Notes under the pieces: model-generated | Seen by the model: the letters and a program-made list of their open reading frames with translations, nothing else | Told to the model about the DNA's origin: nothing | Database searches by the model: none | From: Escherichia phage FL33 | Sequence record: PP400788 | Length of the DNA stretch: 64,000 nt | Reading direction: 5' to 3' (one strand) | Shown: positions 7,305 to 7,725 of the stretch, piece by piece | Layout of the letters: the number at the start of each line of letters is the position of its first letter | Numbering within the stretch: position 1 is the stretch's first letter | Program-made: the position numbers and the translations under genes

Positions 7305-7360
7305 GGGTAATAGTATCACAACTAAAACCCTATGTAAACAACTTTGTGAAAAATTTATTA
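7305..7360 (-). promoter_or_regulatory. T4-type early promoter (copy 2 of 3)
   Basis: Minus strand GTTTACAT (fwd gtaaac 7334-7339), 17-nt spacer, TACTAT (fwd tagtat 7311-7316); shares a ~22-nt core ATGTAAACA(A/G)(C/T)TTTGTGAAA with copies 1 and 3. Confidence 0.55.
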
Positions 7361-7642
7361 CAAAAGATTTTTAGCAATAATTTTAAGCTGAGCTACTGAA
7401 ATATGCTTGGCTTTAAACAAAGCAGTTTCTTCAGCAGGGGAGATAACGATTGTAGCACCATCTTTCTTAGCGGACCATCCATCACCCAGGTAAACAGTAC
7501 CTTTGACTTCTTCGCCATCAACCAGGCTAATCATCGGTTTACCTTCACGTCCTTTGTTTGCTTTAATAACTTCAGAAGTAAGGGTCGCTTCAGTCAAAGT
7601 AGAAGCATTAGTCGTTGAAGTGAATTCTTGATAAGTTTTCAT
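7358..7642 (-). CDS. Internal protein (head-packaged) with canonical capsid targeting sequence
   Basis: 94 aa beginning MKTYQEF (T4 IP capsid-targeting sequence) followed by LTE/TSE candidate gp21 cleavage sites; sits in the ipI position upstream of 57B. Confidence 0.75.
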   Translation of the reverse strand: MKTYQEFTSTTNASTLTEATLTSEVIKANKGREGKPMISLVDGEEVKGTVYLGDGWSAKKDGATIVISPAEETALFKAKHISVAQLKIIAKNLL

Positions 7643-7667
7643 TTTATTTTCCTAATTAATTTTGATG

Positions 7668-7725
7668 AGGTAATAGTATCACTACCTCATCAGCATGTAA
7701 ACAACTTTGTGAAATTATTTTAAAT
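7668..7725 (-). promoter_or_regulatory. T4-type early promoter (copy 3 of 3)
   Basis: Minus strand GTTTACAT (fwd gtaaac 7697-7702), 17-nt spacer, TACTAT; directly upstream of the internal protein gene. Confidence 0.55.

Follow-up and report, generated by a model that had tools for sequence, protein, structure and literature searches.

To our knowledge, the targets known to date of injected anti-defence proteins are all GmrSD variants. Phage T4's internal protein I (IPI) is packaged and injected, and it inhibits CT596-type GmrSD (PMC9391042, PMC12373910, PMC3012670), and the GmrSD variant that is blocked differs between Ip1, Ip2 and Ip3 (PMC12373910). Both the role of the capsid-targeting sequence (CTS) and the rule by which IPI is cleaved are described in the T4 literature (PMC9391042, PMC3012670). 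At the IP loci of T-even phages, early-promoter/stem-loop elements have been described (Arbiol et al. 2010, PMC2839356); for the work of Repoila et al. 1994 on these promoter/stem-loop elements and on gene shuffling we rely on the account given by Arbiol et al. The corresponding elements of RB49 and phi1, named PeSLs, are considered analogs and not homologs of those of T-even phages, which have a T4-type promoter and lack the polyG/polyC stem; the PeSLs of RB49 and phi1 are the only ones with reporter and inverse-PCR (mini-circle) evidence (PMC2839356).

We analysed one strand, 64,000 nt in length, of Escherichia phage FL33 (sequence record PP400788), to which we refer as the window. It is a T4-like phage, Tequatrovirus. 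Positions 6400-9200 align with T4 72620-75437 in a single colinear piece (92.7-92.8%) and are 100% identical to Escherichia phage FL34, and the T4 gene order trna.2, trna.3, trna.4 (7096..7281), ipI, 57B, 57A, 1, 3, 2, 4 is kept. In this order, ORF 7358..7642 lies between 57B and trna.4, the position of T4 ipI. We hold it as highly probable that this ORF is a Tequatrovirus ipI ortholog and that the two promoter/stem-loop modules flanking it, PE2 and PE1, double as short homology patches. The features of the locus, all on the minus strand, are the following:

7358..7642, minus strand: ipI CDS including the stop codon, encoding the 94-aa precursor of internal protein I
7589..7642, minus strand: propeptide MKTYQEFTSTTNASTLTE, 18 codons, capsid-targeting leader ending L-T-E, presumed gp21 site
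7361..7588, minus strand: mature IPI (IPI*), 76 aa, 73/76 identical to 2JUB chain A over the full length
7662..7714, minus strand: upstream module, T4 PE2 equivalent, -35 TTTACA at 7701-7696, -10 TACTAT at 7678-7673, TG-extended
7663-7692, minus strand: stem-loop of the upstream module, enclosing the -10, -20.2 kcal/mol, z -5.4
7299..7351, minus strand: downstream module, T4 PE1 equivalent and early promoter of trna.4, -35 at 7338-7333, -10 at 7315-7310
about 7302-7333, minus strand: stem-loop of the downstream module, also enclosing the -10, -16.9 kcal/mol, z -3.2
4409..4461, minus strand: third, weaker module copy, upstream of the e.8 homolog (4113..4388) as its early promoter, promoter-scan hit 4448-4420
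8768..8775, minus strand: late-promoter motif TATAAATA within gene 1, from a motif search, matching T4 PL1

As in the elements described at the IP loci of T-even phages, the modules of the window (about 50-70 nt) consist of a T4 early promoter and an AT-rich inverted repeat on both sides of an IP ORF, and in relatives genes are gained and lost at modules of this type. We found nothing substantive that differs between the two.

The modules were returned by a direct-repeat search as a family of three members. With 7299-7351 as the reference copy, 7662-7714 was 81% identical over 53 nt, and 4409-4461 was 66% identical over 53 nt. The 20-nt core ATGTAAACAACTTTGTGAAA is exact at 7332-7351 and 7695-7714, and has two mismatches (18/20) at 4442-4461. 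When we allowed up to three mismatches, the core was matched three times in the 64-kb window, against 0.02 matches expected from shuffles, hence the repeat is real and not a product of chance. On the coding (minus) strand, the modules flanking ipI read TTTCACAAAGTTGTTTACAT, 14-15 nt and TGATACTAT; in the promoter scan all three copies had TTTACA, a 17-nt spacer and TACTAT, with TG ahead of the -10. The sequence-only reading, an earlier note on this DNA, had described the gene as framed by repeated early-promoter modules, and for the two flanking copies this was confirmed. The third copy that it listed does exist and has the promoter pattern, but it is weaker than the other two and without a stem-loop, as its sequence gave no stable fold (-2.4 kcal/mol, z +1.1).

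The three copies have counterparts in T4, with identities of 98.6% for the upstream module, 97.4% for the downstream module and 98.6% for the third copy, which in T4 is found at the same place (T4 locus extract 2070-2089). In X03016, a T4 tRNA-region record of 1985, a 'put. -35/-10 region (PE2)' and a 'pot. stem-loop' are annotated upstream of ipI; downstream of ipI the same record has PE1, driving ORF2/trna.4, and a 'pot. stem-loop' labelled as 'pot. IpI terminator'. By their match to this record, both modules flanking ipI are the annotated T4 early promoters PE2 and PE1, each with its stem-loop. An Rfam scan of 4300-7800 at the gathering threshold listed only ten tRNAs, the modules being without a known RNA family.

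The candidate roles of the module stem-loops are attenuator, RNA stabiliser or none. Their main function could be to end or attenuate transcription, so that ipI is insulated from 57B, and trna.4 from ipI, in the manner of the RB49-type PeSLs, an explanation that we consider possible but rather unlikely. Both hairpins are stable (-20.2 and -16.9 kcal/mol, z -5.4 and -3.2), and the stems of PE2 and PE1 differ in sequence while in the folds both of them pair (GATGAGGTA/TACCTCATC and TAGGGT/ACCCTA); however, a U-tract was absent after either stem, and the terminator scan called neither hairpin. Termination by PeSL stem-loops has been obtained in reporter assays (PMC2839356), but the T-even IP elements are weaker, AT-rich analogs of the PeSLs and not their homologs (Arbiol et al. 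2010, PMC2839356). The label in X03016 agrees with a terminator downstream of ipI, whereas ipI, to be expressed late, presumably depends on transcription continuing from the late promoter of gene 1. For this promoter we considered the motif TATAAATA at 8768-8775, since in X03016 the matching position of gene 1 bears a 'pot. -10 region (PL1)'. Late ipI transcripts would likely start from this motif and read through 57A-57B, and in this way the motif plausibly supplies IPI transcripts during head assembly.

The second part of our preferred explanation, i.e., that the modules double as short homology patches, has a counterpart in the sequence-only reading, which had suggested that the modules could be used as homology arms in the exchange of cassettes. 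We compared the breakpoints with the promoter repeats at the nucleotide level in two relatives, RB14 and PM107 (n = 2), and in both the breakpoints coincide with the repeats. Precisely, RB14 has an extra IP gene, Ip5 (85 aa, MKTFKEF...), between 57B and ipI, and both ends of this insertion are in module copies. Its middle module (locus extract 1560-1631) is a chimera, with the PE1-type GGGGTTTTAGTT on the left and the PE2-type TCTCATCAAAATTAATTAGG on the right. In PM107 a different IP of 77/81 aa (MKTYQEFIAET...) is located between ipI and trna.4, with a full module at one end and a partial one at the other, and ipI itself (locus extract 1558-1848) has a premature TGA, due to the change from GGA to TGA at the Gly31 codon. 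This pair of ipI and adjacent IP looks like a replacement in progress.

Some minor observations were made on the same two loci. The chimeric module between Ip5 and ipI of RB14 has its hairpin disrupted, and it is likely the footprint of a crossover in the shared -10 region. The last codons of RB14 Ip5 (...EDLK) reuse the ending GATTTAAAATAA of 57B (...DDLK). In PM107 the split ipI is annotated as two hypothetical ORFs, with the different IP gene immediately downstream.

We also considered the distribution of the differences between the window and T4. At the DNA level, ipI is 87% identical, against 96-99.6% for the six flanking genes and 97-99% for the modules, and the mismatches are concentrated at 7382-7634. 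The two modules contain only three differences, of which one is a 1-nt indel, and the two intergenic regions outside them contain one. The dS relative to T4 was 0.54 for mature ipI and 0.04-0.13 for the six flanking genes, with a dN of 0.017 for ipI; the synonymous excess in ipI with respect to the flanks was significant (Fisher p = 7e-10). A dS of 0.54 together with a dN of 0.017 points to a different ancestry under purifying selection, and not to accelerated evolution of the protein. These values indicate that the ipI allele of the window has an ancestry different from that of the backbone, with an older divergence, and that it was placed into this backbone. Since the block of divergence stops a few codons inside the ORF on both sides, the crossovers could have occurred in the conserved ends of ipI rather than in the modules proper.

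It could be argued that the likeness of the modules is due to the constraint on strong T4 early promoters, that they have no role in recombination and that ipI diverged by faster, arms-race evolution. In fact, all three copies fit the promoter pattern, the third one, at e.8, adjoins no IP gene, and T4 early promoters have a common extended consensus (Liebig & Ruger 1989, as reported in PMC9391042). Nevertheless, the promoters of T4 ipII and ipIII have GTTTAC and not the 20-nt core, so the identity between PE1 and PE2 exceeds what the generic consensus would give; the excess divergence of ipI is synonymous (dS 0.54, dN 0.017), and the indels of RB14 and PM107 start and finish in module copies, and RB14 has a chimeric module. 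We therefore judge this explanation as improbable.

According to the preferred explanation, the approximately 50 nt common to the two modules would provide short patches of homology, at which IP genes may be gained, lost and replaced among T-even phages, and the window would represent the minimal, T4-like arrangement with a single ipI. The block of allele divergence and the chimeric module of RB14 make a clean worked example in support of recombination at the modules. The idea of the modules as homology arms for cassettes is thus supported by the comparisons (the indels of RB14 and PM107 at module copies, the chimeric module, the divergence block), but it is not new, as it was already published (Repoila 1994; Arbiol 2010).

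The hypervariability of IP loci, on which the sequence-only reading had also relied, was evident in our data. In 36 loci of IMG/VR, retrieved by means of 57B, the slot from 57B to trna.4 had from 0 to 5 CTS-bearing ORFs, of many lengths and sequences, and none of the CTS-bearing ORFs in the slot of these 36 loci was IPI. IPI was found in 290 phage records, while 901 records matched the 2.8-kb query 6400-9200, which contains ipI. About 400 Tequatrovirus genomes cover this region. Among the same 36 loci, the 20-nt core was found with 0-1 mismatch in three loci with a 57B identity of 99-100% and in a divergent one (57B 80%); the remaining loci gave no match or only matches with 2-4 mismatches. 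The exact core is then largely confined to close relatives, and for this reason the breakpoint test is limited to Tequatrovirus genomes.

As regards the protein, ORF 7358..7642 on the minus strand opens with MKTYQEFTSTTNASTLTEATLTSE and its first residues are MKTYQEF (from the ORF list and the sequence of window 7100-7900). We searched all PDB chains, and the sole match was 2JUB_A, 'Internal protein I', whose residues 1-76 correspond to residues 19-94 of the query without gaps (73/76 identical, E 7.5e-43). In Pfam, PF11634 (IPI_T4), described as 'nuclease inhibitor from bacteriophage T4', matched at model positions 1-76 of 76 with an E value of 1.3e-51 and 173 bits (the gathering score being 25), and PHROG 4363 'internal virion protein' matched with an E value of 1.8e-48. 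The identity to T4 IPI (NP_049749) was 91% over the full length. Yersinia phage phiD1 has an identical 94-aa protein, annotated as 'internal virion protein', and the same ipI allele is present in the published phages FL34, phiD1, UFV05 and G4507. NCBIfam has no family for IPI. Judged from its sequence, the ORF is the ortholog of T4 ipI, and no sequence feature that contradicts this assignment was found.

An internal-protein gene with a capsid-targeting leader had been recognised correctly by the sequence-only reading, whereas its statement that the body does not resemble T4 IPI is contradicted by the matches of residues 19-94; the homology search returned a plain T4 IPI ortholog, in a locus that at ipI is colinear with T4. 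That a novel internal protein unrelated to IPI, IPII and IPIII fills the ipI slot, for which there is only the statement in that reading and the fact that the slot in other phages does house many unrelated IPs, is almost certainly wrong, being ruled out by the 73/76 identity of the mature part to the solved structure, by the 173 bits of IPI_T4 and by the 91% full-length identity to T4 IPI. The feature is real, ordinary and already explained, that is, T4 ipI with the PE2/PE1 promoter/stem-loop modules. It amounts to the re-identification of one of the best-studied phage anti-restriction genes, with little at stake.

The differences from T4 IPI are mostly in the propeptide, which is MKTYQEFTSTTN-ASTLTE in the window and MKTFKEFTSTTTPVSTITE in T4, where it is one residue longer. 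MKTYQEF had been taken as the exact T4 CTS; it is indeed the leader of T4 IPII and IPIII, but T4 IPI itself has MKTFKEF. The mature proteins are of equal fold-length, and the propeptide ends x-T-E/A in both (here and below, the slash marks the presumed cut). At the level of the sequence, the leader and a site of the gp21 type (L/I-x-E) are present in the window (MKTYQEF...TLTE/ATLTS), and the mature chain of 2JUB_A begins at query residue 19, directly after Glu18. With respect to T4, the mature part has three conservative substitutions, I to V, A to V and H to Q, the residues of the window being V46, V83 and Q85. These three substitutions and the leader change of YQ for FK might, in principle, change the specificity of the protein or the efficiency with which it is packaged. 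We also considered a swap of the leader, in which another IP would have contributed MKTYQEF to the IPI body, but two codons are too little evidence for it.

T4 IPII and IPIII have in common with ORF 7358..7642 the MKTYQEF leader and the promoter-plus-inverted-repeat context, and they are of the same functional class, that of injected inhibitors of type IV restriction (PMC12373910). Beyond the leader, in contrast, there is no sequence similarity to the protein of the window, and their locus, next to denV and e, is other than that of ipI.

On the basis of the T4 literature, the following course can be proposed. Early ipI transcription would start from PE2 in the upstream module, whose motif is seen in the window, and late transcription would probably occur by read-through from the late promoter within gene 1, while PE1 in the downstream module would act as early promoter for trna.4-trna.2. 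The translated product would be the 94-aa precursor with an N-terminal propeptide of 18 residues, the first of which, the CTS, would direct it into the scaffolding core of the prohead. There the prohead protease gp21 would cut after Glu18 (L-T-E/A), at the boundary that matches 2JUB, and the 76-residue mature protein would be packaged, injected with the DNA and would block GmrSD of the E. coli CT596 type, a type IV restriction enzyme that depends on glucosyl-hmC. For the protein of the window, we infer packaging, injection and inhibition of CT596-type GmrSD from the 96% identity of the mature part.

As a side observation, 57B (7715..8173, minus strand), which adjoins ipI, matched the Pfam family Acb1 (anti-CBASS) with an E value of 2.7e-60; with this match, two anti-defence genes would be side by side. 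In RefSeq records T4 57B is mislabelled as 'RNA ligase'.

Colinearity with T4 is broken only further left, by the replacement at the e.7 position, by a 557-nt cassette at 4577-5133 and in the tRNA cluster. In the cassette we found an unannotated ORF, with these features:

4617..5090, minus strand: 157-aa ORF with a CTS-like leader and L-x-E motif, MKSYTQFLNE/AVLNEA
5129-5136: late-promoter motif TATAAATA, about 40 nt upstream of the 157-aa ORF, from the motif search
4577-4612 and 5134-5169: two copies of a 36-nt intrinsic-terminator repeat flanking the 157-aa ORF, from repeat search and fold

In the whole window, only two ORFs start with MK[TS][YFW], namely ipI and this one. Of the hairpins of the modules and of the 36-nt repeat, the terminator scan called only those of the 36-nt repeat, at 4586-4609 and 5143-5166. 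In T4 exactly one period of the repeat, 557 nt, is missing, and one hybrid copy of the 36 nt is left.

Homologs of the 157-aa ORF are found in Tequatrovirus, Mosigvirus and Jiaodavirus, 511 phage records in all. It is labelled hypothetical in every source and belongs to PHROG 2280, of unknown function; neither Pfam, searched with the 216-aa extended reading of the ORF, nor NCBIfam has a family for it. The leader was examined in three homologs and was kept in all of them (3/3): across Tequatrovirus, Mosigvirus, Jiaodavirus and an IMG/VR contig, the leaders with L-x-E are MKSYAEFLTE, MKFKEFLIEA and MKTYNEFLNES. An exact TATAAATA right after the hairpin was found in the Jiaodavirus and IMG/VR loci, and a near-match, AATAAATA, in Mosigvirus.

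Lying outside the two classical IP loci, the 157-aa ORF is in our view a candidate for a further internal (injected) protein. A broader proposal would join the two loci: recombination within or at the flanking modules would have brought in the ipI allele as a whole, its synonymous divergence being about 5-10 times the backbone value, and a capsid-targeted protein of 157 aa would lie at a third locus, mobilised by the 36-nt terminator and the late promoter. This proposal is tentative, and we rate it slightly below an even chance. If true, IP cassettes would exist beyond the two classical loci, and more than one kind of regulatory repeat would serve as homology arms. If packaged, the 157-aa protein would be another candidate for the list of injected anti-defence proteins; as a widespread 'hypothetical', this by-product of the analysis may be more useful than the feature that had been flagged.

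The remaining differences from T4 were observed in the same region. The tRNA cluster (5482-6310, minus strand) has ten genes, for Arg, Asn, Tyr, Met, Thr, Ser, Pro, Gly, Leu and Gln, compared with eight in T4. It lacks the homing endonuclease segB, and tRNAs for Asn, Tyr and Met are found where T4 has segB and tRNA-Ile. Two mosaic patches were also noted. One is trna.3 (6698-7096), with a DNA identity to T4 of 75.8% against 97-98% for its neighbours, and the other is the e.7 position (3867-4043), where a shorter ORF of 58 aa is 68% identical to T4, with several gaps.
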